From Alphaproteobacteria bacterium (lineage in GTDB: Bacteria > Pseudomonadota > Alphaproteobacteria > UBA828), in contig CAXXMU010000001.1 in the NCBI GenBank assembly GCA_963667785.2, positions 800,001 to 864,000 of the forward strand: DNA of 64,000 nt. The letters are read 5' to 3'. Below the pieces are notes generated by a model. That model made no database searches. It saw only the letters and a list, made by a program, of their open reading frames with translations, and was not told where the DNA came from. The position numbers were made by a program, and so were the translations under genes. Positions 25,932-41,587 of the stretch are shown here, in pieces; positions within the stretch are counted from its first letter, which is position 1; the number at the start of each line of letters is the position of its first letter.

Positions 25932-28184
25932 TCAGAAGGGGGTCGGATCGGCGAAGCGGCGCAGGACGTTCTCGGTCATGCGCGAGACGTTGTTGTCGTG
26001 GTCGTTGTGGGCGAGGCTGCCGCACCAGGCGATCGAGCTGGTGGAGAACACCGCGCCGCCATTCGCCGTCTCGTAGAACACGATGTCGGCGCGCACCAGC
26101 GGGTCCTGCGTGCCGTCGCAATTCGGCCGGTTCACGTCGAGCTCCTCGCAGACCACGAGATAGAGGTCGGTGTGGCCTTCGGAGGTCGCGAGCACGTAGG
26201 TGTTGGGCGGCGTGCCGAGTAGCGGGTCGGCCCGGTCGAGCTCCAGCCCCGCGGCGCCGCCGCCGATCAGCCCGAAGTCGCCGATCCTCTCGTCCTTGCC
26301 GATGCCCTCGAAGATCCAGGCGACCTCCCGCTTGAAGCTGTCCGGCTGGCGCACATAGTAGGACGAGATGTCGAAGCCCTGGGCGCTGAACCCGGTGCCG
26401 GCGATGACCTGCGGCGGCCTGCCGTTGCGCCGCCAAAGCCCGCCATACTCGCCGGTGAAGCTGTGGTAGTACTCGCCGGGCCGCGCGATCCAGGTGCGGA
26501 TGCCGTCCTCGGCGCGGCGCACCTCGATGCAGCCCGGCACCTCGGTATGGTAGGCGATGCGCCAGTACCAGCCGTTGGCGCCCATGTACATGAGCCGCCC
26601 GCCGCGCTGCTGATAGGCGTACATCGCGTCCCACATCGCCTTCGAGTGATACTCGGGATGCGAGCCGGTGAGGACGACCGTGTAGTCCTGGATCGCCGCC
26701 AGGCCCTCGTAGTGCAGGTCCTCGTCGGTGACGACGTCGTACTCGAAGCCCTTCGCCTCCAGCCATTCGGTGAGGTGCGTGTCGGCGTTGAACTGCCAGA
26801 GGGTGGATTCGGTGCCGCCGATCCACTCCAGCGCCTTCGGCCGGAAATTCAGGATCGGCCGGAGCCGCGAGGAGTAGCAGATTCCGCTGCCGTCAATGTG
26901 GCTGTCGTAGAGCGAGGTGCCGTATTCCCGGTGCTCGCTGCGCTGGAGGTTCTTCTCGTTCAGCACGGTGAGCCGGCCGGTGAGGATCTGCGCCGGGCCC
27001 ATGTTGGTGGACATGTTGGTGTTGGCGTAGGCCATGTAGCTCGCGGTGGGGAGCAGGAAACAGATCTTCGCGGTGGGCGCGCCGCGCGGGGCACGCACGG
27101 CGAAGGGAATGTAATCCTCGCCGCCGCCCTCGCCGCGCAGCCGTGCGGCGTAGACGCCGCTCTTCAGTCGCTTGGGGCAGGTAAGGGAGAAATCCACCTC
27201 CCAGCGCGCGTCGTAGACGTCGTCCTCGTGGAAGTGGATCGCGCCATACTGGGAGGGCGCGTTCCGCCAGTTCATCTCGCTGCCGTCCCAGCACCAGCCG
27301 GTGACGGCGCGCGTCGGCAGGTTGACGAGGCTGCCGTGCAGCCCGTTGGCGGAGAGATCGCTCACCGCCGTCGTGGTGATTCCTTCGGAAAAGTCCCAGG
27401 CGCCGACGATGGCGGTGGCGAGCGCGCCGTCCACCGGGCGGGTCTTGGCGAGCTCCATCTCCGCCGGCGTCAGCACGCGATTGGCGATGCGCGGGCTGTC
27501 GATGCGTCCGTTGTAGAAGCCGCCGCAGACGGTGCGTCCCTTGTCGACGCGCCGGAAGTAGGCGCCCATGGTGAGCGGGGCGTCGTGCGTGCCCGGCGCC
27601 TTCAGGGCGGACTTCTTCTTGACGGTGCCGCCGTGGCGGACCTTGGGGTATTCGTTGAGCGGCTGCTGCACCAGGGTGACCTGCTTCGACGAGGCGTCGT
27701 AGCTGGCGGCGACGAAGTACCACTGGTGCGGGAGCAGTGGCCGCTTGGTGGCGATCACCTCGATCTTGCCCTTGCCGTCGCCGAGGCAGAGCGCGAGCGA
27801 GCCGTCCTGCTTGGTGATGATCATGGCCGCGCCGGCCTTGTCGCGATCGCGCCAATTGGAGATCAGCGCCTGGGTGCCACGATCGGGCGTCGTCGGCCAG
27901 ATGAACGCCTGGAAGGTGAAGCTCTCCAGGCCCTGGATCGCGGGATGGGCGGGAACTTCCAGGAAGGAGCCGTCGTAGCAGACCTGCCGGCGCCCCTTGT
28001 AAGTGCCGTTGGCGCCGGTCCTGACCACCTTTTCCTTGAGGCCCGGCCCGTCCGGGTTCTCGTCGCCGCAGACGAGGCGGACGATGTCGCAGCGGTAGGA
28101 GGGCGCTTCGCTGCTCACCATGAAGTTGATGGTCTCTCCCGGCGTCACGCTGACGCGGTCGGCATAACCCGCGATTCTGGTCAT
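25932..28184 (-). CDS. N,N-dimethylformamidase large (beta) subunit family protein
   Basis: GYADRVSV, LamG-like insert, AIHFHEDD, SYMAYAN, SLYDSH, HPEY, YMGANG, GLELD, NVLRRF. Confidence 0.88.
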   Translation of the reverse strand: MTRIAGYADRVSVTPGETINFMVSSEAPSYRCDIVRLVCGDENPDGPGLKEKVVRTGANGTYKGRRQVCYDGSFLEVPAHPAIQGLESFTFQAFIWPTTPDRGTQALISNWRDRDKAGAAMIITKQDGSLALCLGDGKGKIEVIATKRPLLPHQWYFVAASYDASSKQVTLVQQPLNEYPKVRHGGTVKKKSALKAPGTHDAPLTMGAYFRRVDKGRTVCGGFYNGRIDSPRIANRVLTPAEMELAKTRPVDGALATAIVGAWDFSEGITTTAVSDLSANGLHGSLVNLPTRAVTGWCWDGSEMNWRNAPSQYGAIHFHEDDVYDARWEVDFSLTCPKRLKSGVYAARLRGEGGGEDYIPFAVRAPRGAPTAKICFLLPTASYMAYANTNMSTNMGPAQILTGRLTVLNEKNLQRSEHREYGTSLYDSHIDGSGICYSSRLRPILNFRPKALEWIGGTESTLWQFNADTHLTEWLEAKGFEYDVVTDEDLHYEGLAAIQDYTVVLTGSHPEYHSKAMWDAMYAYQQRGGRLMYMGANGWYWRIAYHTEVPGCIEVRRAEDGIRTWIARPGEYYHSFTGEYGGLWRRNGRPPQVIAGTGFSAQGFDISSYYVRQPDSFKREVAWIFEGIGKDERIGDFGLIGGGAAGLELDRADPLLGTPPNTYVLATSEGHTDLYLVVCEELDVNRPNCDGTQDPLVRADIVFYETANGGAVFSTSSIAWCGSLAHNDHDNNVSRMTENVLRRFADPTPF

Positions 28185-28259
28185 CTGTGGCTCCCTCGGG
28201 GCCTGGCGGCGATTTGACGGTGGTGCAGAGTGCCGCGCGCGCGGCGATGGCGGTGGCGG

Positions 28260-28562
28260 CTACTTCGGCAGCGCCTTGCCCGTGTGCTGCTTCCAGCGCA
28301 GGCGGAAGACGTAGCGCTCGGCGTCCTCGATATTGTCGAAGGTCTTGGCGAGCAGCTTGACCGGCTTGCCGCGCACGCCGGAGAGCTGGGCGAGGCGCCA
28401 CTCGCGGCCCGGCTTGGTGCAGACCAGGCAGTGCTTGTCCTTCACGTCGGCGCCCCGGAACGTGTTGAGCACGCGTTGCAGGTCGGGGCTGTGGTGGCCA
28501 ATCGGCTTGGCCATGAACTCGTCGACGACGTAAAGGTCCTTTTCCGTGACTTGGTATGCCAT
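28260..28562 (-). CDS. N,N-dimethylformamidase small (alpha) subunit-like protein
   Basis: 100 aa directly upstream of the large subunit; EFMAKPIGHHSPDLQRVLNTFR...F...EDAERYVFRLR recalls the DMFase small subunit. Confidence 0.75.
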   Translation of the reverse strand: MAYQVTEKDLYVVDEFMAKPIGHHSPDLQRVLNTFRGADVKDKHCLVCTKPGREWRLAQLSGVRGKPVKLLAKTFDNIEDAERYVFRLRWKQHTGKALPK

Positions 28563-28699
28563 CGGCTGCTCCCTGTGGCGCGCTGCCTGCGCGTGCTCTC
28601 GGCGGCACGGATTAGAGCGCGATGCGCAGGCCGAGACAACTCCCCCGTTGACGCGCGCCGGAGCTCTGCGCCGTGTCGGTCCGGGGCCGGCCGCCCCGG

Positions 28700-29731
28700 T
28701 CACCCGTTCGCCGCGACGGTCCGGTCGATCCGCTCCAGATGCGCCGTCCTGGCAGGCTCGTCGAGGAACGAGCCTTCGATCGAATTCCGGGCCAGCGTGA
28801 CTAGGTCCGCCCGCTCCAGTTCGAGCGCCTCGGCCACCGCGACGAAATTGTCCAGCAGATAGCCCCCGAAGTAGGCCGGGTCGTCCGAGTTGACGGTGGC
28901 CTTGAGGCCTGCGTCAAGCATGCGCTTCAGCGGGTGCCGCTCCAGATTGGGCACGACGCCGAGCCGGAGGTTGGAGAGCGGACACACGGTGAGGGTCATG
29001 CCCCTCTCGGCCAGGCGGCGGACCAGCGCCGGATCGTCGAGCGCGCGATTGCCGTGATCGATTCGATCCACGGCCAGCCGGTCCATCGCCTCGGCGACAT
29101 AGGATGCCGGGCCCTCCTCGCCGGCGTGGGCGACGAGCCTGAGGCCGGCTTCGCGCGCCGCGGCGTAGAGGCGCTCGAACTTCGCGGGCGGATGGCCGAT
29201 CTCGGTCGAATCGAGGCCGAGTCCGGCGATTCGCCGGTCGGCGATGTAGGGCTCGGCCTGGCGAAAGGCGGCGAAACCGTCGTCCTCGCTCAGGTCCCGC
29301 CAGACGTTCATGATGAGCAGCGACGTGATGCCCAGCCTCTCGCGGCCGTCGGCGAGCGCGGCCAGGATGCCGTCCGCCGCGGTGGCGAAGGGGATGCCCC
29401 GAGTGGTGTGGCCCTGGGGATCGAAGAACACCTCGACATGGACCGCTCCGTCGGCGGCCACGCGCTCCAGGTAGGCGGCGGTGAGCTCGAAATAGTCCTC
29501 CTCGGCGCGCAGCACGGTCATGCCCTGGTGATAGAGGTCGAGGAAATCCTGCAGCCGGGTGAAGCGGCAGGCGGCCCGAATTTCGTCCGCCGAGCGGAAC
29601 GGGATCCCGACCTTGTTCCTGACGGCCAGCCGCATCATCAAGTCCGGGTCGATCGCGCCCTCAAGATGCAGGTGAAGTTCGGCCTTGGGCAGCGCCCGGA
29701 TATGCGATCTCAGATCCATTTCCGTCTCCAT
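28700..29731 (-). CDS. Adenine/adenosine deaminase family protein
   Basis: LPKAELHLHLEG, HAGEEG, RIDHG, TVCPLSN, NSDDPAYFGG. Confidence 0.88.
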   Translation of the reverse strand: METEMDLRSHIRALPKAELHLHLEGAIDPDLMMRLAVRNKVGIPFRSADEIRAACRFTRLQDFLDLYHQGMTVLRAEEDYFELTAAYLERVAADGAVHVEVFFDPQGHTTRGIPFATAADGILAALADGRERLGITSLLIMNVWRDLSEDDGFAAFRQAEPYIADRRIAGLGLDSTEIGHPPAKFERLYAAAREAGLRLVAHAGEEGPASYVAEAMDRLAVDRIDHGNRALDDPALVRRLAERGMTLTVCPLSNLRLGVVPNLERHPLKRMLDAGLKATVNSDDPAYFGGYLLDNFVAVAEALELERADLVTLARNSIEGSFLDEPARTAHLERIDRTVAANG

Positions 29732-29766
29732 CCGATCCCGACGGCCTGGCGTGAGCGAATAAGGTG

Positions 29767-30570
29767 CTACTCGCTGCGCTCCTGCCGCCGCCTGCGGACG
29801 ACCAGGAACATGTAGCCGCCGAAGAGGATCGCGATGGCGCCGAACACCGAGAGCGCGCCCATGGTCGGGATCATCGGCGTGTAGCCGGAGCCCATCTTTG
29901 TGTAGAGCCACTCGGTCACCGTGCTGTCGGCGCCGGTGGTGAAGGTCGATAGCGGGAAATTGCCCCACGACAGCAGGAAGGCGAAGAGCGCGCCGGAGAA
30001 GAGGCCGGGCGCGAGCGCGGGCAGCGTGACCTCGCGGAAGGCCTGCCAGCGGTTGGCCCCGAGATCGTAGGCGGCCTCCTCCTGGGCTGCGTCGAAGCCG
30101 TAGACCTGGATCGAGATCACCAGGGTCACGATCGGCACGATCCAGACCAGATGGGCGAAGACCGCCGCTTCCCAGCTCGGCAACACGCCCACATAGGTGA
30201 ACCAGAGCAGCAGCGCGAGGCCGAGCACGGCCTGCGGGAAGAAGATCGGCAGCATGATGAGGCGCTGATAGAACTGGCGGCCGCGCCAGTCGTAGCGGGC
30301 GAAGGCGAGCGCGCCGAAGAAGCCGAGCACGACCGAGATCAGGGCGACGCAGCCGGCGACGTAGAACGAGGTGAGGTGGAGGTCCGTCGTCAGGTTGGCG
30401 CCCAGCGTCTGGTCGTACCACTTGTCGCTCCACGCCTTCACGGGGAAGCGGAAGTAGCGGGACTTGCCGAACGAGCTGACGATGACCGAGAAGATCGGGA
30501 TGTAGAGGAAGAGCGCGATCACGCCGGTCCAGACCGCGATCAGGCTCGTCACCCAGCGCTTTCTCTCCAT
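29767..30570 (-). CDS. Polyamine-type ABC transporter permease (PotC-like)
   Basis: FLYIPI, EEAAYDLGA (EAA motif), VTLP. Confidence 0.88.
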   Translation of the reverse strand: MERKRWVTSLIAVWTGVIALFLYIPIFSVIVSSFGKSRYFRFPVKAWSDKWYDQTLGANLTTDLHLTSFYVAGCVALISVVLGFFGALAFARYDWRGRQFYQRLIMLPIFFPQAVLGLALLLWFTYVGVLPSWEAAVFAHLVWIVPIVTLVISIQVYGFDAAQEEAAYDLGANRWQAFREVTLPALAPGLFSGALFAFLLSWGNFPLSTFTTGADSTVTEWLYTKMGSGYTPMIPTMGALSVFGAIAILFGGYMFLVVRRRRQERSE

Positions 30571-30618
30571 CTCAGAGCGCCCCGCCGCCGCAGGGGCGCG
30601 CGCCTGCGCCCGCCCGCA

Positions 30619-31533
30619 TCATCGTCGGCCCAGCAGCCGGTCGAGGTCGAGCCGGCGCATCAACAGCACCACCAGGAAGCCGGTGACGACGATGGTGAGC
30701 ACCGAGATCGCGGACCCCAGCGGCCAGTTCTGCGCGTAGGTGAACTCGTGCTGGATGTCCTGGGCGATGACCGGCGTGTTCTGGCCGCCGAGCAGCTTGG
30801 CCTCCGAGATCGCGCCCACCGCCAGCACGAAGGTCAGCAGCGCGCCGATGAGGATGCCGGGCATGGCGATGGGGAGCTCCACCTCGCGGAAGATCTGGAA
30901 GCGGCTGGCGCCGAGATCGCGCGATGCCTCCACCTGATCGCGCGGCACCATGGAGAGCCCGAGCACGATGGGGAAGAGGGTGAAGGGCAGATAGACGTAG
31001 ATCATGCCCATGAGGATGGTGCCGGGCTCGTAGAGCAACGTGCCGGTGTCGATGCCGAAAGCGGTCTTGAGTCCGCCCGCCAGGATGCCGCCGCCCTTGA
31101 TCAGGAACAGGTACCAGCCGAAGAGCCTCACGTTCTCCGAGACGAAGAGGGGGATGACGAGGACCAGCATGACCGGCGCGGCCCAGCGGCCGAACAGCTT
31201 GGAGAGGCCGTAGGCGATGGGGTAGCCGATCAGGAGGTTGCAGGCGACGGTGAGCGCGGCCAGCGCGAACGACCAGACGAAGGAGATGTAGTAGCTCTCG
31301 GTGAAGATGTGCTCGTAGTTCTCGGTGGTGAAGCCTGCGCCGAGGTCGAAGGTGCGCTCCGGGGTGAAGCTGAAGGCCAGCACGATCACCAACGGGCCGA
31401 CGAAGCCGATCAGGAAGTAGATCAGCACCGGGGCTGCGCTCAGCACGCCCGGCGAGCGCAGCCAGCCGAGCAGCAGCGCCGGTATGCTGGGCTGGCGCAG
31501 CAGCGCCGCAGGCGCCTCGGAACGGTCGGTCAT
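30619..31533 (-). CDS. Polyamine-type ABC transporter permease (PotB-like)
   Basis: GYPIAY, YVYLPF, EASRDLGA, NWPLGSA. Confidence 0.88.
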   Translation of the reverse strand: MTDRSEAPAALLRQPSIPALLLGWLRSPGVLSAAPVLIYFLIGFVGPLVIVLAFSFTPERTFDLGAGFTTENYEHIFTESYYISFVWSFALAALTVACNLLIGYPIAYGLSKLFGRWAAPVMLVLVIPLFVSENVRLFGWYLFLIKGGGILAGGLKTAFGIDTGTLLYEPGTILMGMIYVYLPFTLFPIVLGLSMVPRDQVEASRDLGASRFQIFREVELPIAMPGILIGALLTFVLAVGAISEAKLLGGQNTPVIAQDIQHEFTYAQNWPLGSAISVLTIVVTGFLVVLLMRRLDLDRLLGRR

Positions 31534-32600
31534 CAGTCGGTCACGAGCACGCTGTCCTTGGCATCCCAGCCGATCAGGACGTCGTCGTTGAGCGAACCCT
31601 GATAGGCGTGCTCCCGGAGCTTCTCGACGACGAACATGCTATCGCCCGCGCTCACGTGGTACTGCACCCGGGAGCCCAGCGCGTACTCGTTGAAGAGCGA
31701 CCCCTCTAGGTGGTTCTCCGCCTCCGAAGGGTCGTTCAGGAAGCGCATCGATTCGGGCCGGATGACGAGATAGCCCCGGGCAAAGCCGTCGGGCCGCGCC
31801 GGGCTGGTGAAGCGGCGCTCGAAGGCGGGGCAGTCGATGCCGCCGTCGGCGCCGGTCTGCACCGCCAGCGTGTTCACCTCGCCCATGAACTCCGAGACGA
31901 ACTTGTTGCGCGGCTGCAGATAGATCTCGTTGGGCGAGCCGATTTGGATGAGCCGCCCCTCCTGCATGATGCCGATGCGGTCGCTCATCACCATCGCCTC
32001 CTCGAGGGAGTGGGTGATGTAGACGAAGGTCTTGCCGGTGGTGCGGTGGAGGTCCTTGAGCTCGACCTCGAGCAGCTTGCGCAGGCGATAGTCGATTGCC
32101 GACAGCGGCTCATCAAAGAACAGGATCTCCGGGTCGGACGCGAGCGCGCGGGCGAGCGCCACGCGCTGGCGCTCCCCGCCGGAGCACTTGGTCACGGACT
32201 TGTCGTAATAGTCTTCCGGCAGCTGGACCAGCTTCATCAGCGAGAGCCCGCGCTCGCGGCGGGCGCGGCGGCTCTCGCCCCGCATCTTCAGCGAGAACTC
32301 GATGTTCTGGCCGACCGTCTTGTGATTGAAGAGGGCGAGGGACTGGAAGACCATGCAGGTGGGCCGCCGGTTGGCGGGCACACTGTTGACCCGCTCCTCG
32401 CGCAGGTAGATGTCGCCTACCGTCGGCTTCTCCAGCCCGCCCAGCATGCGGAGCAGCGTGGTCTTGCCGCTGCCCGACGGGCCGACGATGGTGAAGAACT
32501 CGCCTTCGCGGATGTTGAGGCTGACGTCGTTCACCGCGACCAGTCGGCCGAACTGCTTGGTCAGGTTGACCATGCGCAGGATGGGCGCGGCTTCCGCCAT
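31533..32600 (-). CDS. Polyamine-type ABC transporter ATP-binding protein (PotA-like)
   Basis: GPSGSGKTT, MVFQSLALF, SGGERQR, DEPLSA, C-terminal TOBE domain. Confidence 0.9.
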   Translation of the reverse strand: MAEAAPILRMVNLTKQFGRLVAVNDVSLNIREGEFFTIVGPSGSGKTTLLRMLGGLEKPTVGDIYLREERVNSVPANRRPTCMVFQSLALFNHKTVGQNIEFSLKMRGESRRARRERGLSLMKLVQLPEDYYDKSVTKCSGGERQRVALARALASDPEILFFDEPLSAIDYRLRKLLEVELKDLHRTTGKTFVYITHSLEEAMVMSDRIGIMQEGRLIQIGSPNEIYLQPRNKFVSEFMGEVNTLAVQTGADGGIDCPAFERRFTSPARPDGFARGYLVIRPESMRFLNDPSEAENHLEGSLFNEYALGSRVQYHVSAGDSMFVVEKLREHAYQGSLNDDVLIGWDAKDSVLVTD

Positions 32601-32725: not shown

Positions 32726-33919
32726 TTAGCTCTTCTCGCGCCGCGCCGCCGTGTAGATGTCGTAGAGCCGGTTGTAGTCCGGCACCACGTCGTACTCGAC
32801 GGAGTGCGAGATGCGGTAGTCGAACTCGTCCCACTGGAAGGAGTCGAGCTCCTCCGCCGTGAACTTGGCGAGCAGTTCAGGCTGCGACATCTGGCCCACC
32901 GGCAGCAGGAATCCGCCGGCGGTCGCCACCGCGTAGGAGGTGTCGGGCTGGAGGATGTACTCCATCCAGTCCATGGCCTTCGGGTGCAGGTCTGGATTGT
33001 TGACCACCGAGCTGAGCTCGATCCAGTTGATCCCGCCCTTGCCGTCGGCAGGCCCGCTCTTCGGCACCACGTGATAGAGGTTGGTGAGGCCGTCGAGCCT
33101 GGCTGCCGAGATCGAGTAGGTGCCGCCGCCGAAGTACATGTCGATCTCGCCGTTGACCACGGCGAGGTTCACGGCGACGAAGTCGTCCGAGACCATCTTC
33201 GCGCCGTTGATGAGCCGCCTGGCGGCTTCCTCGAAGATCGCGACCTGGTCGTCGGTCTTCTCCTTGAACGGGTGCAGGCCGGCGGCCATGCAGATGTGCA
33301 TGATGTTCCAGTTGTCGTAGGCGAGGATGCCGTAGCGGCCGGCCATGTCGGGATTGTTGAAGAGATCCCAGCCCTCGTCCTTCGCCATGTCAGCCGAAAT
33401 CACGTCGGTGTTGACGACGAAGTCGAAGGTATCCACCCGCTGGCAGACTCCCAGAAGATGCTCGTTGTCGAGGCTCATCGCCCACTTGTAGGGCGGATGG
33501 AACATCGGCAGCATCGCCTCGAAGTAGGGCTCGAAGCGGGCACGGTCGAGCTCGACGATCAGCCCCTCCGGCCACATCATCTCGCGCGCCCACGGGTTGT
33601 TCAGGTTGATGATGTCCCAGATGGCGGTCTCGCCGGCGCGGAGCTTGTTGACCGAATCCGGGTCGGAGGTGTGAAGCTCGTACTTGATCCCGGTGTCGTA
33701 CTGATCGGTGAAGCCGTCGAGCACGCGCGGGTCGACATAGCCGTCCCACGTCAGCATCGTCAGCTCGTCGGCGGCCCGGGCCCCGCCCGCGAAGGCGCCG
33801 CCCGCGCCGAGCGCGAGCGCGCCTGCACCGATGCCCTGCAGCACCTGCCGCCTGGTTGCGGCGGCGCCCCGCACCGGATCGCGCTTCACCATCTGCTTGA
33901 GAATTCGTTCCTCGTTCAT
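32726..33919 (-). CDS. PotD/PotF-like substrate-binding protein, Tat-exported
   Basis: TRRQVL Tat motif, LTWDGY, KLRAGE..WDII; GGAG RBS. Confidence 0.8.
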   Translation of the reverse strand: MNEERILKQMVKRDPVRGAAATRRQVLQGIGAGALALGAGGAFAGGARAADELTMLTWDGYVDPRVLDGFTDQYDTGIKYELHTSDPDSVNKLRAGETAIWDIINLNNPWAREMMWPEGLIVELDRARFEPYFEAMLPMFHPPYKWAMSLDNEHLLGVCQRVDTFDFVVNTDVISADMAKDEGWDLFNNPDMAGRYGILAYDNWNIMHICMAAGLHPFKEKTDDQVAIFEEAARRLINGAKMVSDDFVAVNLAVVNGEIDMYFGGGTYSISAARLDGLTNLYHVVPKSGPADGKGGINWIELSSVVNNPDLHPKAMDWMEYILQPDTSYAVATAGGFLLPVGQMSQPELLAKFTAEELDSFQWDEFDYRISHSVEYDVVPDYNRLYDIYTAARREKS

Positions 33920-34126: not shown

Positions 34127-34846
34127 TCAGCCGGCGCTGGCCATCAGGTCGGCGCGCGCGCGTTCCATGTGGGCCGTGACCACCTCTACGGCGCGCTCGG
34201 CATCGCGCAGCGAGAGCGCCACCAGCAGCGCCCGATGCTCGCCGTTGTAGGCGGAGATCTGGGAGGGCGTGAGAATCTTGTTCTTGATCGAGTCCCACTG
34301 CTGGTGGGTGCGGACGTGGTTGATCCGGTGATAGATGTCCACGAGCAGCGGGTTGTGGGTGGCCTCCGCCAGCCGGAGGTGGAACATCTCGTCGGTCAGC
34401 GAGAACCGCTCGGGGTCCTCCTGCCCTTCCATCTCGGCAAGCGCCCGCTCCAGAGCGGCCATGTCGCGCGCGGTGGCGTTGCGAACCGCCAGCCGCGCCA
34501 TCTGCGGCTCGATGGCAGCACGGACCTCGACCAGTTCGAGTGGCGAGGTGATCTCGGACACGTCGGTATCGCCGAGCTGGGGTTCGTAGATGACGAAGGT
34601 GCCGCTGCCTACCCGGCGCGCCACCAGTCCTCGCGCCGACAGCGAGCGTAGCGCCTCGCGCACCGTGCCGCGCGACGCGGAGAAGGATTCGGCGAGGCTC
34701 CGCTCGGGCGGCAGGCGGTCGCCCGTCGTCAGAGAGCCGTCGAGGATCTGCTGCGCGAGCCGGGCCGCGATCGAGTCGGCAGCCGAATCGGCCGTCCTCG
34801 GTGCGCCGCCGTTCCCGTCTCCGGACCGTGTGCCTTCTGCCTCCAT
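34127..34846 (-). CDS. GntR/FadR family transcriptional regulator
   Basis: GDRLPPERSLAE...SRGTVREAL, RVGSGTFV, FCD domain (DEMFH...ATHNP...EH). Confidence 0.92.
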   Translation of the reverse strand: MEAEGTRSGDGNGGAPRTADSAADSIAARLAQQILDGSLTTGDRLPPERSLAESFSASRGTVREALRSLSARGLVARRVGSGTFVIYEPQLGDTDVSEITSPLELVEVRAAIEPQMARLAVRNATARDMAALERALAEMEGQEDPERFSLTDEMFHLRLAEATHNPLLVDIYHRINHVRTHQQWDSIKNKILTPSQISAYNGEHRALLVALSLRDAERAVEVVTAHMERARADLMASAG

Positions 34847-34968
34847 CGCACCAGCCCATCAGTCGTCGCGTATCGCCCGACGGTTGTCCCACGGCACTGC
34901 AGGCAGCGGGTGGACCGCGAGCATCCCATTGCTTTAATCAATTTCTGAGAATCGTTCAACCATTTATT

Positions 34969-35038
34969 ACAATTGGTACACAATTGGTCACATCAGCTAT
35001 GCCATTGGTTTGGCGATTGGCGCACAATTGGCTTGACA
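34969..35038. promoter_or_regulatory. AT-rich operator/promoter region with five phased ATTGG boxes and a TTGACA -35
   Basis: ATTGG at 34972, 34983, 35004, 35016 and 35027 (three as ACAATTGG); TTGACA at 35033..35038. Confidence 0.6.
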
Positions 35039-35104
35039 AATGTCGGCCTCCCGGCTTGAGTCCGCCCCCGAAATTCGGTCCCGCAATGCCGAGGAGGCGG
35101 ATGG

Positions 35105-36448
35105 ATGGCGCTCCCGGGCCACGTCAAGTATCTGGTCATCGGTGCCGGAATCCACGGCCTGAGCACGGCCTATCACCTGGCCCTCGGGCTGGAGGCGGAG
35201 GGGCGCGGCAGCGGCGCCGACATCGCGGTGGTGGACAAGACCGCGATCGCCGCCGGCGCCTCCGGCATCGCCTGCGGCGTGGTCCGCAACAACTATTACC
35301 AGCCCGCGATGCGCGAGCTGATGGCCGCCTGCGTCGAGGTGTGGGAGAGCGACCCCGAGGCCTACCACTACCACCCCGTGGGCTACATGCAGATCAGCCC
35401 CGAGAGCATGCACGGGCAGGTCGCCGAGATCGCCGAGCAGCAGCGGGCGATCGGCTACGAGTCCGAGTTCGTCGAGGGCGAGGCCGACTGCGCGCGCTAC
35501 ATGCAGCGGCTGTTCGGCGACTGGCGGGCGCCGGGCGTGACCTCCATCCTGCACGAGAAGAAGGGCGGCTACGCCAACAACCGCGCCTCCATGCTGGGGC
35601 TCGCGGCCAAGGCGGAGGGCACGGGCGTGCGCATCCTCACCGGTGTCGAGGTCACGGGCTTCGGCTTCGGCGCCAACTCGAAGGCCGTGACCTCGGTTGA
35701 GACCAGCGAGGGCAGCATCGGAGTCGATCAGGTCGTCGTCGGCGCGGGCCCCTGGGTGCCTCGCATCTGGGACATGCTGGACCTGCCGGATCGCATCGAC
35801 CTGAAGGACCTCGAGGGCACGGTGCACCGCGACGTCGCGATGTGGCGCTTCTGGTGCCTCGAGGAGGGCACCCTCGGCGTCGAGCCCTCGTTCGGCATGA
35901 CGGATGCCGGGTCGATGCCGCCAGTCATCCACGTCGATTCCGACGAGCCCCTCTATTCCGACGTGGACGGCAGGCTGATCACCGACGAGATGTGGGGCAT
36001 CTACTACAAGCCCGACTTCAATTTCGGCGGCGTCCAGGGCGGCGCCGCGCCCTACAAGGTGGAGACGCCTGCCGCCGACGTGGCGATCGATCCCTACGGG
36101 CCGGAATCGCCCGAGTTCATCGTCGACGACGAGTTCAGGGAGATGTGGTGCTCGGCGCTCGCCTTCTGCCAGGGCCGCTACAGCGGCCAGATCGGGCGCT
36201 GGCGCGACGAGCCCTCGGGCGGGATCGGCGCGTTCACCGCGGACAGCTTTCCCGTCTTCGACCGCTTCCGCGAGAACTGCTATGTGATCGCCGATTCGAA
36301 CCACGGCTACAAGATGCTCGCCGTCGGCAAGCTGGTCGCCGAAGAGCTGCTAGGCCGGGAGAGCGCCCTGCTGCAGCCCTTCCGCTTCTCGCGCTTTGCC
36401 GAGGGCCGCCTTCACCCGACCTCCAACAGCCCCTTCCCGTGGAGCTGA
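35105..36448 (+). CDS. FAD-dependent oxidoreductase (DAO / sarcosine oxidase beta / MgdA-like)
   Basis: VIGAGIHGLSTAYHL, GASGIACGVVRNNY, HGYK, FRFSRF. Confidence 0.8.
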   Translation: MALPGHVKYLVIGAGIHGLSTAYHLALGLEAEGRGSGADIAVVDKTAIAAGASGIACGVVRNNYYQPAMRELMAACVEVWESDPEAYHYHPVGYMQISPESMHGQVAEIAEQQRAIGYESEFVEGEADCARYMQRLFGDWRAPGVTSILHEKKGGYANNRASMLGLAAKAEGTGVRILTGVEVTGFGFGANSKAVTSVETSEGSIGVDQVVVGAGPWVPRIWDMLDLPDRIDLKDLEGTVHRDVAMWRFWCLEEGTLGVEPSFGMTDAGSMPPVIHVDSDEPLYSDVDGRLITDEMWGIYYKPDFNFGGVQGGAAPYKVETPAADVAIDPYGPESPEFIVDDEFREMWCSALAFCQGRYSGQIGRWRDEPSGGIGAFTADSFPVFDRFRENCYVIADSNHGYKMLAVGKLVAEELLGRESALLQPFRFSRFAEGRLHPTSNSPFPWS

Positions 36449-36481: not shown

Positions 36482-37951
36482 ATGACCGATCTCGAGGCCC
36501 ATGTGAACCGGGAGGGCCGCGCCGAGCTGGTGCGGCAGGTGCGCGCCAAGATCGACGAGCTGGGCGTCACCTATATCTACTACCAGTTCGTCTCGGTCAC
36601 CGGGCGGATCGTCGGCAAGGGCATCCCCGCCGATCATTGGGAGCAGATCGCCGAGCGCGGCTTCCAGCTCGTCTACGGCTCCACCGCCAATCTCTTTACC
36701 GACCGCCACTCCAATTACATCGGCTACGGGCCGGAGGCGTCCGAGCTGGTCGGCATTCCCGATCCCGAGACCTTCGTCCAGCTGCCCTGGGACAAGCGCG
36801 TCGCGCGCGTCTTCTGCACCTGCTTCCGCAACCGCGAGGAGCGGGAGAACCCCGGCGGCCACCTGACCTCGGACTGTCGCGGCAACCTGCGGATCATCCA
36901 CGACGAGTTCCAGGCCAAGCACGGCATGCAGATGCGCCACGGCACCGAGCCCGAGATGATGTGGCTGAAGCGCGGCGCTGACGGCGGCACTGACGGCGGC
37001 GTGACCAAGCCCAACTGCTACCACATCGACCAGTTCGAGGAGCTCAGGCCGATCTTCATGCAGGTGGTCGAGTACTCCCAGGCCATGGGTCTCGACATGA
37101 TCCAGGGCGACCACGAGGACGCGCCCGGCCAGCTCGAGCTCAACTTCACCTTCGACGACGCGCTGAGGACCGCCGACCGGCTCACCACCTACCGCCAGAT
37201 CTGCGCCCAGGTCGCGCGCGAGCACGGCGTCATCGCCTGCTTCATGTCGAAGCCCTTCATGGGGGTCTCGGCCAGCGGCTGCCACCACAACGTCTCGCTC
37301 TGGTCGGGCGGGGCGCAGCAGGTCAACGCGCTCCATCAGGACCCGATCGCCGGCATGGACGACACCTTTAGCTACTGGAAGGGCGGCGAGAACCTGTTCA
37401 TGCCGGATCCCAAGCTGGATGCCCACAAGCCCGGGCCGGTCGGCCTGCAATGCATCGGGGGCGTGATGGAGCACCTTGCCGCGCTCACCGCGCTGGGCTC
37501 GTCCACGGTCAACTCGTATCGGCGGCTGTGGGATACGGGCTTCTGGGCGCCAGTCTTCGCCGACTGGGGCTACCAGAACCGGACCTGCGGCCTGCGCGTC
37601 TCGGCACCGGGCCGATTCGAGTATCGCTCGGTCGATTCGATGGTCAATCCGTACCTGATGGCTGGCGCCATTCTCAAGGCCTTCGACGACGGCATCGGCC
37701 GCGACCTCGACCCGGGCGAGCCGGAGGAGCGCAACATCTACCAGGCCATGGAGGCCGGCAAGCTGGTGAAGAAGCTGCCGATGTCGCTCGGCGAGGCGCT
37801 CGATGCGCTGGAGCGCGACGAGGTCATCAGGGCGGCGCTGCCGGACGAGATGCTCAAGGTCTTCATGCACTACAAACGTGACGAGTGGGAGCGCTTCATG
37901 TCCACCGTCACCGAATGGGACGTCGAGACCTATCTCGACTGCCTGCCCTAA
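36482..37951 (+). CDS. Glutamine synthetase-like gamma-glutamyl-amine ligase (GlnT/GmaS-like, non-canonical)
   Basis: GTEPE, DHEDAPGQLE, FMSKPF...SGCH, NSYRRL, NRTCGLR, FEYR, NPYL. Confidence 0.8.
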   Translation: MTDLEAHVNREGRAELVRQVRAKIDELGVTYIYYQFVSVTGRIVGKGIPADHWEQIAERGFQLVYGSTANLFTDRHSNYIGYGPEASELVGIPDPETFVQLPWDKRVARVFCTCFRNREERENPGGHLTSDCRGNLRIIHDEFQAKHGMQMRHGTEPEMMWLKRGADGGTDGGVTKPNCYHIDQFEELRPIFMQVVEYSQAMGLDMIQGDHEDAPGQLELNFTFDDALRTADRLTTYRQICAQVAREHGVIACFMSKPFMGVSASGCHHNVSLWSGGAQQVNALHQDPIAGMDDTFSYWKGGENLFMPDPKLDAHKPGPVGLQCIGGVMEHLAALTALGSSTVNSYRRLWDTGFWAPVFADWGYQNRTCGLRVSAPGRFEYRSVDSMVNPYLMAGAILKAFDDGIGRDLDPGEPEERNIYQAMEAGKLVKKLPMSLGEALDALERDEVIRAALPDEMLKVFMHYKRDEWERFMSTVTEWDVETYLDCLP

Positions 37952-37974
37952 CCGAAGCGAGAAGCGAGGCGCCC

Positions 37975-38931
37975 ATGTGCGGGATAGCAGGACTGATCCA
38001 CCGGGGATCGAGCGGAGACATCGGCGCGGAGATGACCGCGATGCTTCAGGCGTTGAAGCACCGCGGGCCGGATTCGACCGGCTTTGCCATCTACGGCATT
38101 CCGGCAGGCTCCGACCACGTGATGCGCTTCAAGGTGGCGGAGCAGGAGGACATCGGCAAGGGCTTCGAAATCCACCAGCAGATCAAGGATCGCAAGGCGG
38201 AGGTCGATGCGCGCATCCGCAGCATGGACGTGGAGATCCTCGGCGAGGACGAGGCGACCGAGTATGCGTTCCGCTACCGCCTGCGCTTCCCCGGTGACGA
38301 CGATGACGGCCAGCAGCGACTCAAGCGCTTTGCCGACTACATCGAGGACGTCGAGGGGGCGGAGATCCTCTCCCTCGGCCGCGCGCTGGAGCTCATCAAG
38401 GACCTGGGCGACGCCGGCATCGTGAGCGAGCAGTACAGCCTCGCCGGCTTCCAGGGCACCCACGCCATCGGCCACACGCGGATGGCCACGGAATCCGACG
38501 TCGATATCCGCTCGGCCCATCCCTACTGGGCCTATCCCTTCACCGATATCTCCGTGGTCCACAACGGCCAGCTCACCAACTACTGGAAGTTCCGCCGGGC
38601 GCTGGAGCACCGGGGCCATCGTTTCATGTCGAATTGCGATTCCGAGCTGATCGCCGTCTACCTCGCCGACCGGATCGAGCGGGGCGATTCGCTCAAGGAC
38701 GCGATGGACCGCTCGGTGAGCGAGCTCGACGGCGTCTTCACCTACCTGGTGGCGACCGCCGACAGCCTGGGCATGGCCAAGGACACGATGGCGGCCAAGC
38801 CCATGGTGCTCTACGAGAGCGACGACTTCGTCGGCCTCGCCTCGGAGGAAGTCGCCATCCGCAGCATCATGCCCGACGAGATCGACACCTGGGATCCCTA
38901 CGAGGGGGAGGTCAAGGTATGGCAGAACTGA
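37975..38931 (+). CDS. Class II glutamine amidotransferase (MgsA/GlxB-like)
   Basis: N-terminal MCGI, HRGPDSTG, GHTRMATES, HNGQLTN, DSE. Confidence 0.82.
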   Translation: MCGIAGLIHRGSSGDIGAEMTAMLQALKHRGPDSTGFAIYGIPAGSDHVMRFKVAEQEDIGKGFEIHQQIKDRKAEVDARIRSMDVEILGEDEATEYAFRYRLRFPGDDDDGQQRLKRFADYIEDVEGAEILSLGRALELIKDLGDAGIVSEQYSLAGFQGTHAIGHTRMATESDVDIRSAHPYWAYPFTDISVVHNGQLTNYWKFRRALEHRGHRFMSNCDSELIAVYLADRIERGDSLKDAMDRSVSELDGVFTYLVATADSLGMAKDTMAAKPMVLYESDDFVGLASEEVAIRSIMPDEIDTWDPYEGEVKVWQN

Positions 38932-39770
38932 GCCCCGCCGACCGGCACAAATCCCATGACATGGGGCTGCACGCCGAGCAGCTCGCCGGCCGCACCCAGC
39001 AGGTCTTCTTCTCGCCCGAGGAAGGCGACAACTACACCTATCCCGAGGGCTTCGACGTCGACTTCTCGAAGAAGGCGACGATCGACGTGGCGGAGATGGA
39101 GGCGCCCGAGGTCAACCTCCGCATCCGCGAGCTGATGGGCGAGGGCTACGGCCACATCGTGGTTCAGAACCCGCTGGCCAAGCATTCGCTCGGCGTCGGC
39201 ATCCTCAACCGCCTGAAGCTCGATTTCGAGGGCAGCCTCGGCTACTTCGGCTGCGGCCTGATCGACGGCCCCAACGTCCACATCAAGGGCCGCGTCGGCT
39301 GGTCCTGCGCCGAGAACATGATGGCCGGCGTCGTGGTGGTGGAGAAGAACGCGGGCTCGACCTTCGGCGCGGCGCTTCGCGGTGGCGACCTCGTCTGCAA
39401 GGGCGACGTGGGCTCGCGCACCGGCATCGACATGAAGGGCGGCACCATCCTCATCGGCGGCCGTGCCGGCGCGTTCACCGGCTTCATGATGCAGCGCGGC
39501 CGCATCGTCATCCTCGGCGACGCGGGCCCCAACCTCGGCGATTCCCTCTACGACGGCACGATCTTCGTCGGCGGCACCATCGCCTCCCTCGGCGTCGACG
39601 CCGTGCCCGGCGAGATCACCGACGTCGAGGCGCGCTGGCTCGAGCGGAAGCTCGAGACCTACGGGCTGGAGGCGCCGAACGGCGTCGCCGGGCTCACCAA
39701 GATCGTCGCCGGCAAGCAGCTCTGGAACTACGACAACCTCGAACCGACCGAGAAGAAGATCGCGCTCTGA
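38919..39770 (+). CDS. GXGXG (GltB-C/FwdC) domain protein (MgsB/GlxC-like)
   Basis: Gly-rich beta-helix repeats: AENMMAG, GIDMKGGTI, GFMMQRG, LGDSLYDG. Confidence 0.82.
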   Translation: MAELSPADRHKSHDMGLHAEQLAGRTQQVFFSPEEGDNYTYPEGFDVDFSKKATIDVAEMEAPEVNLRIRELMGEGYGHIVVQNPLAKHSLGVGILNRLKLDFEGSLGYFGCGLIDGPNVHIKGRVGWSCAENMMAGVVVVEKNAGSTFGAALRGGDLVCKGDVGSRTGIDMKGGTILIGGRAGAFTGFMMQRGRIVILGDAGPNLGDSLYDGTIFVGGTIASLGVDAVPGEITDVEARWLERKLETYGLEAPNGVAGLTKIVAGKQLWNYDNLEPTEKKIAL

Positions 39771-39811
39771 GCGCGCCTTCTCGCCGATCGCTACCCTGCA
39801 AGGAGCCCGCA

Positions 39812-41179
39812 ATGGCAAGCGACAGACGCGACGCCGCCGCCAACCGGCCCAGCCGCAACCGTCACATTCTGGGGCGGAGCAGCATCTTCTCGCCGGAGGT
39901 GATCGACGACATCCACATCAAGGCGGAGCTCGGCCGCTACCGGATGCGGGGCTTCTCGCTCTTCAAGAACATCCCCACCTTCGACGACCTGACCTTCCTG
40001 CCGGGCACGCTCACGCGCTTCGTCATCGAGGGCTACCGCGAGAAGTGCACCACGACCACGGTGATCGGGCCCAAGGCCAAGCGCCCGCTCGTGCTCGACA
40101 TCCCGGTCTACGTCACCGGCATGAGCTTCGGCGCGCTCTCCTACGAGGCCAAGACCGCGCTCGCCCGCGGCGCCACCATGGCCGGGACGGCAACCTGCTC
40201 CGGCGAGGGCGGCATGATCCCCGACGAGCGCCGCTATTCTGAGAAGTGGCTCTACCAGTGCATCCAGTCGCGCTACGGCTTCAACCCTCACCATCTGAGG
40301 CTGGCGGACGCCTGCGAGTTCTTCATCGGCCAGGGCTGCAAGGTCGGGCTCGGCGGCCATCTGATGGGGCAGAAGGTCACCGACCAGGTGGCCGAGATGC
40401 GCTCGCTGCCCGCCGGCATCGACCAGCGCTCGCCGGCGCGCCATCCGGACTGGCTGGGGCCTGACGATCTCGCCCTCAAGATCAACGAGATCAGGGAAGC
40501 TACCAACGCCGAGATCCCGATCCAGCTCAAGCTCGGCGCCGCCCGCGTCTATGACGACGTGCGCATGGCGATCAAGACGGGGCCCGACAGCATCTACATC
40601 GACGGCATGGAGGGCTCGACCGGCGCCGGCCCGCACCTGGCGACCGAGGAGACCGGCGTGCCCGGCATCGCCGCGATCCGCCAGGCGCGCAAGGCGCTCG
40701 ACGACCTCGGCGCCACCGGAAGCATCAGCCTGGTCTATGCCGGCGGCGTCAGGAACGGCGGCGACATCGCCAAGGCGCTGGCGTTGGGTGCCGACGCGGT
40801 CGCCATCGGCCACTCGGTAATGATGGCGCTCAACTGCAACAAGGACATCCCGGAGGCCGACTACGAGTCGGAGATCGGCGTCGAGGCCGGCTACTGCTAT
40901 CACTGCCACACCGGCCGCTGCCCGGTGGGCGTCGCCACGCAGGATCCGGAGCTGCGCCAGAGACTGGACCCCGACGAGGCGGCGGAGCGGGTCTACAACT
41001 TCCTGCACACGCTGACGCTGGAGTGCCAGATGATGGCGCGCGCCTGCGGCAAGACCGACGTCCACAGCCTGGAGCCCGAGGACCTCGCGGCGCTCACCAT
41101 GGAGGCATCCGCCATGGCCCAGGTACCGCTCGCAGGCTCGCAGCACACCGTCGGCCGCCCCGACATGAACCGCTACTAG
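39812..41179 (+). CDS. FMN-binding glutamate synthase family protein (MgsC/GlxD-like)
   Basis: GMSFGALS, SGEGG, GQGCKVGLGGHL, RSPARHPD, AGGVR, CHTGRCPVGVATQ. Confidence 0.85.
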   Translation: MASDRRDAAANRPSRNRHILGRSSIFSPEVIDDIHIKAELGRYRMRGFSLFKNIPTFDDLTFLPGTLTRFVIEGYREKCTTTTVIGPKAKRPLVLDIPVYVTGMSFGALSYEAKTALARGATMAGTATCSGEGGMIPDERRYSEKWLYQCIQSRYGFNPHHLRLADACEFFIGQGCKVGLGGHLMGQKVTDQVAEMRSLPAGIDQRSPARHPDWLGPDDLALKINEIREATNAEIPIQLKLGAARVYDDVRMAIKTGPDSIYIDGMEGSTGAGPHLATEETGVPGIAAIRQARKALDDLGATGSISLVYAGGVRNGGDIAKALALGADAVAIGHSVMMALNCNKDIPEADYESEIGVEAGYCYHCHTGRCPVGVATQDPELRQRLDPDEAAERVYNFLHTLTLECQMMARACGKTDVHSLEPEDLAALTMEASAMAQVPLAGSQHTVGRPDMNRY

Positions 41180-41194
41180 GACCGGAGAGGCGCC

Positions 41195-41587
41195 ATGAGC
41201 GACAAGACCGGCGACGTCGACTACTACCTGAGCCAGAGCGGCCTCGACAGCGAGCGCGAGAAGGAGATCGGCCAGCACATCGGCTATCGCTACGATGTGA
41301 ACCTGGTGCCGGACTACGAGCGGATCACCCCCTTCCTCAAGCGCTACGTCGAGACCATGGGCTGGACCGACCTGAACTGGCTCGAGGACGTCCATATGGG
41401 CTACGAGGAGGGCCGGCCGGCGGTGTTCGATCGCAACATCAACGGCTGGGTCTCGGTGCCGGCGGACCTGGAGCTGCCGGACAATCAGCAGGACCGCGAC
41501 ATGCTCGCCCGCGAGCTGCTGGTGAAGTTCCAGATGTCGCCCCGGCACCCCATGTCCGACCTCAACGGGGCCTATCGCAAGTTCTAG
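41195..41587 (+). CDS. Protein of unknown function, last gene of the GS/mgs-like operon
   Basis: 130 aa, GGAGAGG RBS, host-like GC3 codon bias, aromatic/acidic-rich. Confidence 0.8.
   Translation: MSDKTGDVDYYLSQSGLDSEREKEIGQHIGYRYDVNLVPDYERITPFLKRYVETMGWTDLNWLEDVHMGYEEGRPAVFDRNINGWVSVPADLELPDNQQDRDMLARELLVKFQMSPRHPMSDLNGAYRKF

Follow-up and report, generated by a model that had tools for sequence, protein, structure and literature searches.

The 64,000-nt stretch of DNA analysed here (hereafter the window) corresponds to C1:800001-864000 of an alphaproteobacterial assembly (4.09 Mb in 14 contigs, 98% complete, ~69% GC), and encodes a conserved catabolic module formed by a flavoprotein (DAO447), a ligase of the glutamine synthetase (GS) type (GS489), three proteins resembling the MgsABC subunits (GATase', GXGXG' and GltB', the first of them a class-II glutamine amidotransferase, or GATase) and a protein of 130 residues (unk130). 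Based on the genomic context of this module and on its co-occurrence with enzymes of methylated-amine breakdown, we propose that it is a glutamate-carrier route for dimethylamine (DMA), the product of Tdm and of N,N-dimethylformamidase (DMFase), a reading to which we assign a probability of roughly 0.55. We are highly confident of the more general statement, namely that the module has its place in the catabolism of methylated amines and differs from the GmaS-MgsABC system. The wider proposal, in which this operon would be the missing DMA route, by undescribed chemistry, of most of the marine bacteria (including streamlined oligotrophs) that demethylate trimethylamine N-oxide (TMAO) without having DmmDABC, falls in our view a little short of even odds.

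GmaS, MgsABC and MgdABCD together make up the N-methylglutamate route for methylamine, and DMFase yields formate and dimethylamine. Marine dissolved organic nitrogen includes a sizeable pool of methylated amines, which are also precursors of aerosols. The published pathway leads from trimethylamine (TMA) to TMAO, from there to DMA and then to monomethylamine (MMA); in SAR11 and many other bacteria no enzyme is assigned to the DMA step (PMC5520151). The same paper reports that SAR11 lacks dmmDABC, and puts forward the idea of a metabolic bottleneck. Additionally, growth of a SAR11 strain with TMAO as nitrogen source is described in PMC8918994, a SAR11 one-carbon region with glnT/glxBCD and a 'monomeric sarcosine oxidase' in PMC3160333, and a Roseobacter regulon in PMC13390433. 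The literature covered, with subscription journals mostly outside the search, contained no paper that names another DMA route or the intermediates dimethylglutamate and glutamyldimethylamide.

The distribution of the module was followed in two samples, one of 400 genomes evenly drawn from the window's class (class sample 1) and another of 400 genomes centred on the Arenicellales genome G001 (class sample 2, with one genome that was not scorable). In class sample 1, a Tdm orthologue is present in 32 of the 400 genomes and a GS489 orthologue (64-88% identical) in 36, the module being found in 23 of the 32 genomes with Tdm vs 13 of the 368 without it (odds ratio ~70). The haem-dependent oxidative N-demethylase DmmDABC, whose alpha subunit (DmmA) belongs to PF11927, behaves in the opposite way. 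Among the same 32 Tdm genomes, the 23 that bear the module include 2 with a match to PF11927 (a strong one and a weak one of 51 bits), and the 9 that lack it include 7 (six strong, one weak); the remaining 2 genomes, one of which is only 75% complete, have neither. Class sample 2 gave 20 Tdm genomes besides G001, of which 13 have the module only, 6 PF11927 only, none both and 1 neither. When the 52 Tdm genomes are pooled (34 with the module only, 13 with PF11927 only, 2 with both and 3 with neither), Fisher's test gives a p of 8e-8, which overstates the significance, because related genomes are not independent. At the family level, class sample 1 holds 16 families with the module, 5 with a strong PF11927 match and 1 with both. 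In a further 50 module genomes taken from the set of related loci described below, PF11927 was found in 2 and Tdm in 39. The source genome, at 98% completeness, gave no match to PF11927 in the same search that does find the family in other genomes. Given this complementary distribution among Tdm genomes, we propose DmmDABC as a functional analogue of the module, to which it has no homology; DmmDABC is an NADPH- and O2-dependent haem enzyme that acts on free DMA, whereas the module would spend ATP and work with intermediates bound to glutamate.

Enzymes of the trimethylamine or dimethylamine dehydrogenase type (TMADH/DMADH) were considered as a general filler of the DMA gap and ruled out by a control in which the 52 Tdm genomes were searched with the TMADH homologue of the source genome: a single match exceeded 50% identity, and 18 of the 36 module-bearing Tdm genomes showed no TMADH homologue at E <= 1e-120. 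The query itself comes from a second amine cluster of the source genome (L108, C6:781001-800000, minus strand), which encodes an aldehyde dehydrogenase, a GS-like protein, a GS489 paralogue (56% identical), a PhyH dioxygenase, the close trimethylamine dehydrogenase homologue (826 bits to PDB 1djn) and a branched-chain-type ABC importer. The presence of such an enzyme beside a ligase of the GS489 family may be a further link between these ligases and methylated amines.

The surroundings of the module in other genomes point in the same direction as its distribution. A scan with GS489, using one genome per species, gave 570 confirmed relatives, and the locus counts used throughout refer to the best 80 of these 570 (75-96% identical), many of which are cut off by contig ends, so that the counts per gene are affected (L-numbers denote these related loci and G-numbers genomes, G006 with its locus L005 being the closest relative of the source genome). 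In the 80 loci the module is flanked by Amt-type transporters (29), proteins with the Tdm architecture of DUF1989 plus GCV_T (15), formate-tetrahydrofolate ligase (FTHFS/Fhs; 11), SoxB/D/A/G-like Mgd genes (~10) and FolD (7), together with binding proteins of the OpuAC/TmoX type and BHMT. Two streamlined genomes of the same class (G439 and G080, with 1.3-1.4 Mb and 33-36% GC, a size and composition that we infer to be typical of SAR11-type cells) are the most instructive cases. In G439, the genes for Tdm, a 116-aa open reading frame (ORF), DAO447, GS489, GATase', GXGXG', GltB', unk130, Amt, mgsA, mgsB, mgsC and gmaS follow each other on one strand, with TmoX divergent, and G080 has the same genes together with Tmm, SoxBDAG and an IclR regulator. 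These islands contain a gene for every published step from TMA to glutamate (through TMAO, DMA, MMA, gamma-glutamylmethylamide and N-methylglutamate) except the one from DMA to MMA, and the module is located precisely between the DMA producer (tdm) and the MMA consumers (mgsABC-gmaS). In another locus, L030, an FMO-type Tmm is found in addition to mgsABC-gmaS and the module. In the source genome, Tdm is encoded in a TorS/TorR-TmoX-ABC locus and exceeds the equivalog cut-off (1164 vs 1100 bits); the single query used for Tmm retrieved no orthologue there.

The resemblance between the module and the N-methylglutamate pathway (GmaS, with TIGR03105 and the structures 7cql and 9qur; MgsABC, equivalent to GlxBCD; MgdABCD) is clear, as both combine an ATP-dependent, GS-like amine ligase with a subsequent enzyme that is split into class-II GATase, GXGXG and GltB-type FMN-domain proteins (at this locus, three adjacent genes in this order), and both occur in the same genomic islands. 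The components are nevertheless different. GS489 reaches 320.4 bits with TIGR03105, the GmaS equivalog model (cut-off 469.6), and its scores with the solved GmaS structures (189-191 bits) are no better than that with an archaeal GS, whereas a canonical GmaS from a related island aligns to 7cql with ~586 bits (585.7). A maximum-likelihood tree built from 37 GS-like proteins places the GS489 family on a long branch with 100/100 support, separate from the canonical GmaS clade (100/99), so that the phylogeny suggested in the earlier note on this DNA leaves GS489 outside the characterised GmaS clade. GS489 is only ~28-30% identical overall to GmaS and 25-30% to the canonical ligase of the same islands, is longer (489 vs 435-450 aa) and has a ~24-residue insertion at residues 277-300. 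The 'different' N-terminus that had been attributed to the ligase is not borne out, as this region aligns normally with the beta-grasp domain of GS and GmaS. Judged by eye on pairwise alignments (mapping to 7cql by phmmer, chain numbering offset by +20), GS489 retains the catalytic Asp177 and Glu186 of RhGmaS and the pocket residues Tyr147, Gln175, Glu179 and Asn188, whose roles are taken from PMC7948447.

The Mgs-like trio leads to the same conclusion. It is not orthologous to the mgsABC found beside canonical gmaS, being closer to the second (module) set of the two streamlined genomes: GATase' is 58-71% identical to its module orthologues vs 30-32% to the canonical MgsA of those genomes, GXGXG' is 63-64% identical to module orthologues vs 31-36% to canonical MgsB (with ~283 aa vs 226 aa), and GltB' is 85-98% identical among carrier loci and ~75-79% in the two streamlined genomes, vs 49-55% to canonical MgsC and other paralogues. 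The internal insertion reported earlier for the GATase is real, the protein being ~22-26 residues longer than the aligned canonical MgsA. A Cys motif, C-x19-C-x2-C-x4-C (LNCNK...GYCYHCHTGRCP), is found in GltB' at residues ~342-370 (window 40880-40930); it is kept in all the module sequences compared and in some canonical MgsC, and the canonical MgsC of L057 and L030 have a degraded form of it. The motif is a possible iron-sulfur site and, as such, a possible distinguishing feature of the module enzyme.

Further differences from the N-methylglutamate pathway are the two additional proteins without a family (130 and ~195 aa) and the presence of a single DAO-type flavoprotein gene where the pathway has the four Mgd subunits. 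This last point had been raised in the earlier note and holds at the locus, where the four-subunit MgdABCD set is absent; for the genome it does not, since a SoxB/D/A-like set is encoded elsewhere (C1:165601-170164). Moreover, canonical GmaS coexists with the module in 4 of 5 carrier genomes, in 18 of 23 in the class sample and in 3 of 5 SUP05-type genomes (a fourth having a truncated copy), often at a distance of 5-24 kb and in L057 and L030 within one locus; the source genome has its own canonical GmaS at C5:289396-290679 (658.7 bits with TIGR03105). Membership of the canonical pathway is therefore ruled out by the TIGR03105 score, the separate clade and the non-orthologous trio, and the earlier description of the ligase and trio as paralogous to the canonical methylamine genes stands. 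PuuA (gamma-glutamylputrescine synthetase, NF045547) is also a GS-like ligase that activates an amine on glutamate, and GS489 reaches 241 bits with its model (cut-off 650). Further gamma-glutamylation ligases act on isopropylamine (IpuC), aniline and naphthylamine. In these other routes, the gamma-glutamyl amide is oxidised or hydroxylated and then hydrolysed, without an Mgs-type GATase/GXGXG/GltB enzyme.

Among the 80 loci, GS489 was found in 80, GATase' in 75, GXGXG' in 69, GltB' in 66, unk130 in 56-57, the GntR regulator in 56 (divergent from the module and 40-86% identical to that of the window) and DAO447 in 40. An ORF of 193 aa, located just downstream of unk130 and convergent with it, is 41% identical to a family of 197-aa ORFs that adjoins the module in 34 of the 80 loci. 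These counts identify the right half, together with GntR and the 193-aa ORF, as a conserved module; the left arm, whose genes recur in almost none of the loci, is local and lineage-specific. The 80 relatives come from Alpha- and Gammaproteobacteria (SUP05/Thioglobus, Arenicellales, Rhodospirillales, Dongiaceae and others), Acidimicrobiia, Binatia and others. An orthologue of DAO447 with at least 57% identity is present in 41 of the 50 module genomes, which makes the demethylation step attributed to it frequent, though not universal. The solved structures nearest to DAO447 are the beta subunit of heterotetrameric sarcosine oxidase (39 bits), dimethylglycine dehydrogenase (DMGDH), MSOX and DMGO (matches of 20-39 bits), all of which are N-methyl amino acid demethylases.

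Regarding the two small proteins, unk130 was found in 57 of the 80 loci and has 55 invariant columns in 40 sequences. Its AlphaFold2 model (pLDDT 76) yielded no fold relative (best VIA Z 3.0, no Foldseek match at E <= 0.001), which leaves the fold unassigned and is no proof of its novelty, a sequence search against solved structures gave one chance-level match (E 0.012), and the ESM Atlas returned an unnamed cluster (best score 0.76) that gives no lead; for GS489, the same atlas returned generic GS clusters only. A predicted complex of GltB' with unk130 had a score of 0.01, which is uninformative about binding either way. The 193-aa ORF matched no family in Pfam or NCBIfam. Other small ORFs without a family are found inside the islands, namely one of 116 aa between tdm and DAO447 in G439 (L116, 4012-4362) and one of 204 aa upstream of DAO447 in L057 (7546-8160).

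Assuming DMA as the substrate, the module could operate as follows. GS489 would use ATP to convert DMA into gamma-glutamyl-dimethylamide. The GATase'/GXGXG'/GltB' enzyme, perhaps together with unk130, would then free DMA and channel it onto the 2-imino- or 2-oxoglutarate made at the FMN site, giving N,N-dimethylglutamate. DAO447 would subsequently take off one methyl group as formaldehyde, leaving N-methylglutamate, which the genome's dehydrogenase of the SoxBDA(G)/Mgd type would finally convert into glutamate and methylene-tetrahydrofolate. With these four steps, the module would fill the role that DmmDABC has in other bacteria. RhGmaS itself accepts DMA (Km of 16 mM, vs 27 uM for MMA, in Table 1 of PMC7948447), and since a ligase of the GS family can thus take DMA, a dedicated DMA paralogue is plausible. 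Likewise, the relationship of DAO447 to N-methyl amino acid demethylases agrees with the loss of a single methyl group, which would leave the Mgd substrate N-methylglutamate. The chemistry by way of N,N-dimethylglutamate in particular, drawn from the enzyme families concerned and, for the trio, by analogy with N-methylglutamate synthase, is put forward tentatively, the odds being in our view appreciably against it.

Several observations weigh against this assignment. DMA was chosen as the substrate only from context and co-occurrence, and the choice is not proven. Tdm went unmatched in 13 of the 36 genomes of class sample 1 that carry the module, two of these 13 being complete genomes from the window's own family. 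Two genomes, G403 (strong match) and G080 (weak match), have both the module and PF11927, and this family is a marker for DmmA alone, the survey having covered this subunit of DmmDABC. The source genome has the close TMADH/DMADH homologue of L108 (826 bits to 1djn), which may represent an alternative DMA route there. As GS489 keeps the GmaS pocket residues, no sequence feature yet indicates a secondary amine. There is no canonical GmaS in 5 of the 23 carriers, nor in G004, so that in these genomes the module could equally serve MMA. Additionally, 9 of the 50 carriers have no close DAO447 and the SUP05-type loci show none beside the module. Finally, on the DMFase side, the pocket residue F693 corresponds to Val in the large-subunit homologue of the window (dmfL; by eye), and linkage of dmf genes to the module is rare.

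Some of these points would also fit a second MMA system, in which the module would duplicate GmaS-MgsABC as isozymes that differ in affinity or regulation and DAO447 would be a single-subunit N-methylglutamate oxidase. Such a system would share the three-enzyme architecture and the catalytic and pocket residues of GmaS, and would account for the adjoining Amt-type transporter (29 of 80 loci), for the carriers without canonical GmaS (5 of 23, and G004) and for streamlined genomes that retain the module without DAO447. An MMA isozyme, however, is not expected to exclude DmmA, yet PF11927 is present in 2 of the 36 Tdm genomes with the module vs 13 of the 16 without it; furthermore, genomes of 1.3-1.4 Mb hold both full sets side by side, where redundancy is unlikely. 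We regard this explanation as unlikely. The module could instead handle some other small amine (an N-methylated amino alcohol, ethylamine, hydroxylamine or the amine released by the local amidases) and simply travel with TMAO and quaternary-amine catabolism, the complementarity with Dmm being then indirect. The variable flanks (BHMT and OpuAC in SUP05 loci, an ADI/DDAH-superfamily hydrolase in 4 of the 80 loci, two arrangements of DMFase pairs and, in G006, a gene of the MttB family), the 13 of 36 carriers without Tdm and the often broad substrate range of GS-like ligases (Table 1 of PMC7948447) would all agree with such a role, but the strongest and commonest neighbours are specific for one-carbon metabolism (Tdm, Mgd/Sox, FolD, FTHFS and canonical mgsABC-gmaS), the extreme conservation of GltB' argues for one universal substrate, and DMA is the sole step of the pathway without an assigned enzyme in the carrier genomes. 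On balance, we find another amine improbable.

It is also conceivable that the whole 16 kb form one dedicated unit for a natural formamide or N-alkyl amide, with import by the Pot-like system, cleavage by the DMFase-like enzyme and processing of the amine next door. The divergent arrangement around one regulator, the synteny kept in G006 and the second DMFase pair that adjoins the module in G272 speak for this possibility, which we nevertheless consider quite improbable: dmfL was found in 0 of the 80 related loci and lies away from the module in G007 and G098, other genes take the place of the deaminase in G006, linkage to a DMFase is much rarer than the module itself, and the DMFase family includes an N-acetyl-beta-phenylalanine acylase. 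As for an alternative GS/GOGAT-type assimilation of ammonia, it would explain the combination of a GS-like protein with split parts resembling glutamate synthase and the Amt genes nearby. GS489, though, scores 266 vs 429 bits with the GlnA model (TIGR00653), no GltD-type reductase subunit is encoded in the module, the context is one of one-carbon catabolism under GntR/FCD control, and the module is found in only 36 of 400 class genomes and is tied to Tdm; based on the GlnA score, the missing GltD-type subunit, the context and the distribution, we have ruled this candidate out as barely credible.

The DMA route, if true, would mean that the marine methylated-amine 'metabolic bottleneck' is not genetic, and that gmaS surveys using loose BLAST cut-offs could have merged two functions. 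The module, of six to eight genes, is present in 36 of the 52 sampled Tdm genomes, almost never together with DmmA. The DMA reading also gives a rationale for the occasional docking of DMFase-family amidases, whose product is DMA, to the module. In addition, the module draws attention to two invariant proteins of unassigned fold or family.

The features of the locus are collected in Table 1. Gene families were assigned by Pfam and NCBIfam profile searches of the window proteins, and these recovered every gene of the earlier list, in the same order and position. In general terms, the observation made then is confirmed and its interpretation partly supported. In particular, the idea of a glutamate-carrier pathway is retained, and the N-alkyl amine that had been called unidentified can probably be narrowed down, as context and phyletic pattern point to DMA.

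Table 1. Genes and other features of the module and its left arm (feature, position in the window, strand, supporting match or remark).
dmfL, DMFase-family large subunit, 750 aa	25932-28184	-	PF20254, E 4e-102
dmfS, probable DMFase small subunit, ~100 aa from MAYQVTEK	28260-28562	-	weak collinear match to 6lvb_B, E 0.09
Adenosine-deaminase family protein	28700-~29731	-	NF006850, 469 bits; TIGR01430, 361 bits
potC-like	29767-30570	-	Pfam BPD_transp_1/ABC importer set
potB-like	30619-31533	-	Pfam ABC importer set
potA-like	31533-32600	-	Pfam ABC_tran, TOBE_2
potD-like binding protein, Tat-type signal	32726-33919	-	Pfam SBP_bac_8
GntR/FCD (FadR-type) regulator, divergent from the module	34127-34846	-	PF00392, 80 bits; PF07729, 94 bits
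Predicted divergent promoter/operator region, 258 bp	34847-35104	.	clustered CAATTGG/ATTGG motifs
DAO447, distant SoxB/MSOX/DMGO-type flavoprotein	35105-36448	+	PF01266 on residues 9-228
GS489, GS-like amine ligase, sister family of GmaS	36482-37951	+	PF00120
GATase', class-II (Ntn) GATase, MgsA-like, starts MCGIAG	37975-38931	+	PF13522, PF13537
GXGXG', GXGXG protein, MgsB-like, ~283 aa	~38919-39770	+	PF01493
GltB', GltB FMN-domain protein, MgsC-like	39812-41179	+	PF01645, E 1e-87
unk130, conserved small protein	41195-41587	+	no Pfam/NCBIfam family; constant module member
193-aa ORF, frequent module accessory, convergent	41591-42172	-	no Pfam/NCBIfam family

The regulator has both an N-terminal GntR winged helix-turn-helix and a C-terminal FCD domain, and is thus a member of the FadR/FCD subfamily. 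Three exact CAATTGG motifs and two ATTGG variants lie within 63 bp (34969-35031) of the intergenic region that separates it from DAO447. The motifs recur in G006, and L007 has an ACCAAT...ATTGGT palindrome. The description of this region as operator-rich is supported by the clustering of the motifs only, the enrichment of CAATTGG over the whole window being not significant (5 occurrences vs 2.3 expected, with 11 of 100 shuffles reaching 5). GntR would control both arms through these clustered sites.

In the left arm, the DMFA2_C domain of dmfL scores 342.7 bits and covers positions 1-372 of 374, and over its full length the protein reaches 635 bits with the Paracoccus DMFase (6lvb_A) and 551 bits with an N-acetyl-(R)-beta-phenylalanine acylase (8huy). 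By eye, it keeps the iron ligands Y399, Y440 and E521 and the essential H519 and N547 (residue roles as given in PMC7686228). The arrangement is similar to DmfA1A2 of Paracoccus sp. DMF (6lvb), with the same two-Tyr-one-Glu iron ligands, H519 and N547 and a small-subunit gene directly upstream of dmfL; the differences are the Val at F693 and the small subunit of the window, which is barely recognisable and shorter (~100 vs 132 aa). This protein, dmfS, has no Pfam family; its identity is 95% to the G006 counterpart and 35% to the small protein encoded next to the DMFase paralogue of G272, and this conservation beside two DMFase paralogues supports its probable assignment as a DMFase small subunit. 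The dmfL of the window is one of four such paralogues in the source genome, and relatives in the family have 4-6.

N,N-dimethylformamide is mainly a synthetic solvent, and it had been suggested that the locus may point to the natural substrate of the DMFase family. Such a substrate is not readable here, and the family already has a second characterised one (8huy). The view of import, amide cleavage and amine processing as one conserved unit is not supported either, since dmfL and the deaminase are absent from all 80 related loci; so are the downstream amidase and the racemase-like gene, and a gamma-glutamyltransferase (GGT) was met once, at 29% identity. The linkage of dmf and pot to the module in relatives, on which that view depended, is largely missing and was found only in G006, where GS489 is 96% and dmfL 92% identical; orthologues of pot (93-97%) are likewise found only in G006/L005. 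Elsewhere, dmf orthologues lie 192 kb from the module in G007 and 1.9 Mb from it in G098, and G401 has no module. In G272, which belongs to another genus of the family and has no Tdm, the genes for a different DMFase pair (35% identical for the small and 48% for the large subunit) and for an FAD monooxygenase run convergently towards the 3' end of the module. Two independent juxtapositions of DMFase and module in one amidase-rich family suggest that the amine product of the amidase feeds the module. In that case the left arm would act as a feeder, an amide being imported and then cleaved by the DMFase-like enzyme to give DMA or a comparable small amine.

The Pot-like proteins score below all the equivalog cut-offs (PotA 292/482, PotB 147/348, PotC 124/326 and PotD 38/582 bits), so that the importer, as judged from these profiles, has the architecture of an ABC importer only, and is not a PotABCD spermidine/putrescine equivalog. 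The adenine deaminase that had been called atypical shows nothing atypical: NF006850 is matched with 469 bits vs a cut-off of 419 on residues 243-574 of a 577-aa ORF, which is an upstream over-extension overlapping potC, and the protein is an ordinary member of the adenosine-deaminase family, in a position that is not conserved. In G006 (C1:2360001-2379000; L118, 8110-10784), the same slot holds a methyltransferase of the MttB superfamily (PF06253, 666 bits) and a LysR regulator; the MttB-family gene is below the cut-off for Pyl-type TMA methyltransferases, and is another enzyme of the methylated-amine type in the variable arm. In four of the 80 loci (L013, 5317-6186; L016, 6235-7104; L017; L023), the GntR gene and the module have genes for an ADI/DDAH-superfamily hydrolase and a PotABCD-like importer as their immediate upstream neighbours. 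This hydrolase was considered as a DMA-releasing neighbour of the DDAH type and rejected as too weak a candidate, with 69.7 bits vs the dimethylargininase cut-off of 340 and presence in these four loci only.

Contigs from RNA libraries (four libraries, from four studies) that are 90-95% alike cover dmfL, potD and module genes, one of them spanning GS489-GATase'-GXGXG' and another the GltB'/unk130 junction; the contigs come from relatives, and the libraries can contain DNA, so that this cover is not proof of transcription and the uncovered parts are uninformative. About half of the sampled words of the stretch are matched by sponge-metagenome runs, which serves as a habitat hint only.

Downstream of the module, at 42362-47289, the window encodes an amidase-signature enzyme (NF005565, 672 vs 545 bits), a GGT-like protein (275 bits, below the cut-off of 358), a protein resembling Asp/Glu racemase and arylmalonate decarboxylase and a convergent class-IV aminotransferase; apart from the single GGT at 29% identity mentioned above, none of the four accompanies the module in the 80 related loci, not even in L005, the closest of them. 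Further on, at 48364-50205 on the minus strand, a 613-aa ORF combines a C-terminal FGE-sulfatase (formylglycine-generating enzyme-like) domain with a short N-terminal match to DNA photolyase, and could be either an over-extended ORF or an odd fusion. The source genome as a whole is rich in paralogues for nitrogen scavenging, with ~12 GS-like ligases, three GATase/GXGXG/GltB trios (one of them fused to a GltD-like reductase, at C2:695758-701177), 4 DMFA2_C proteins and ~24 amidases.

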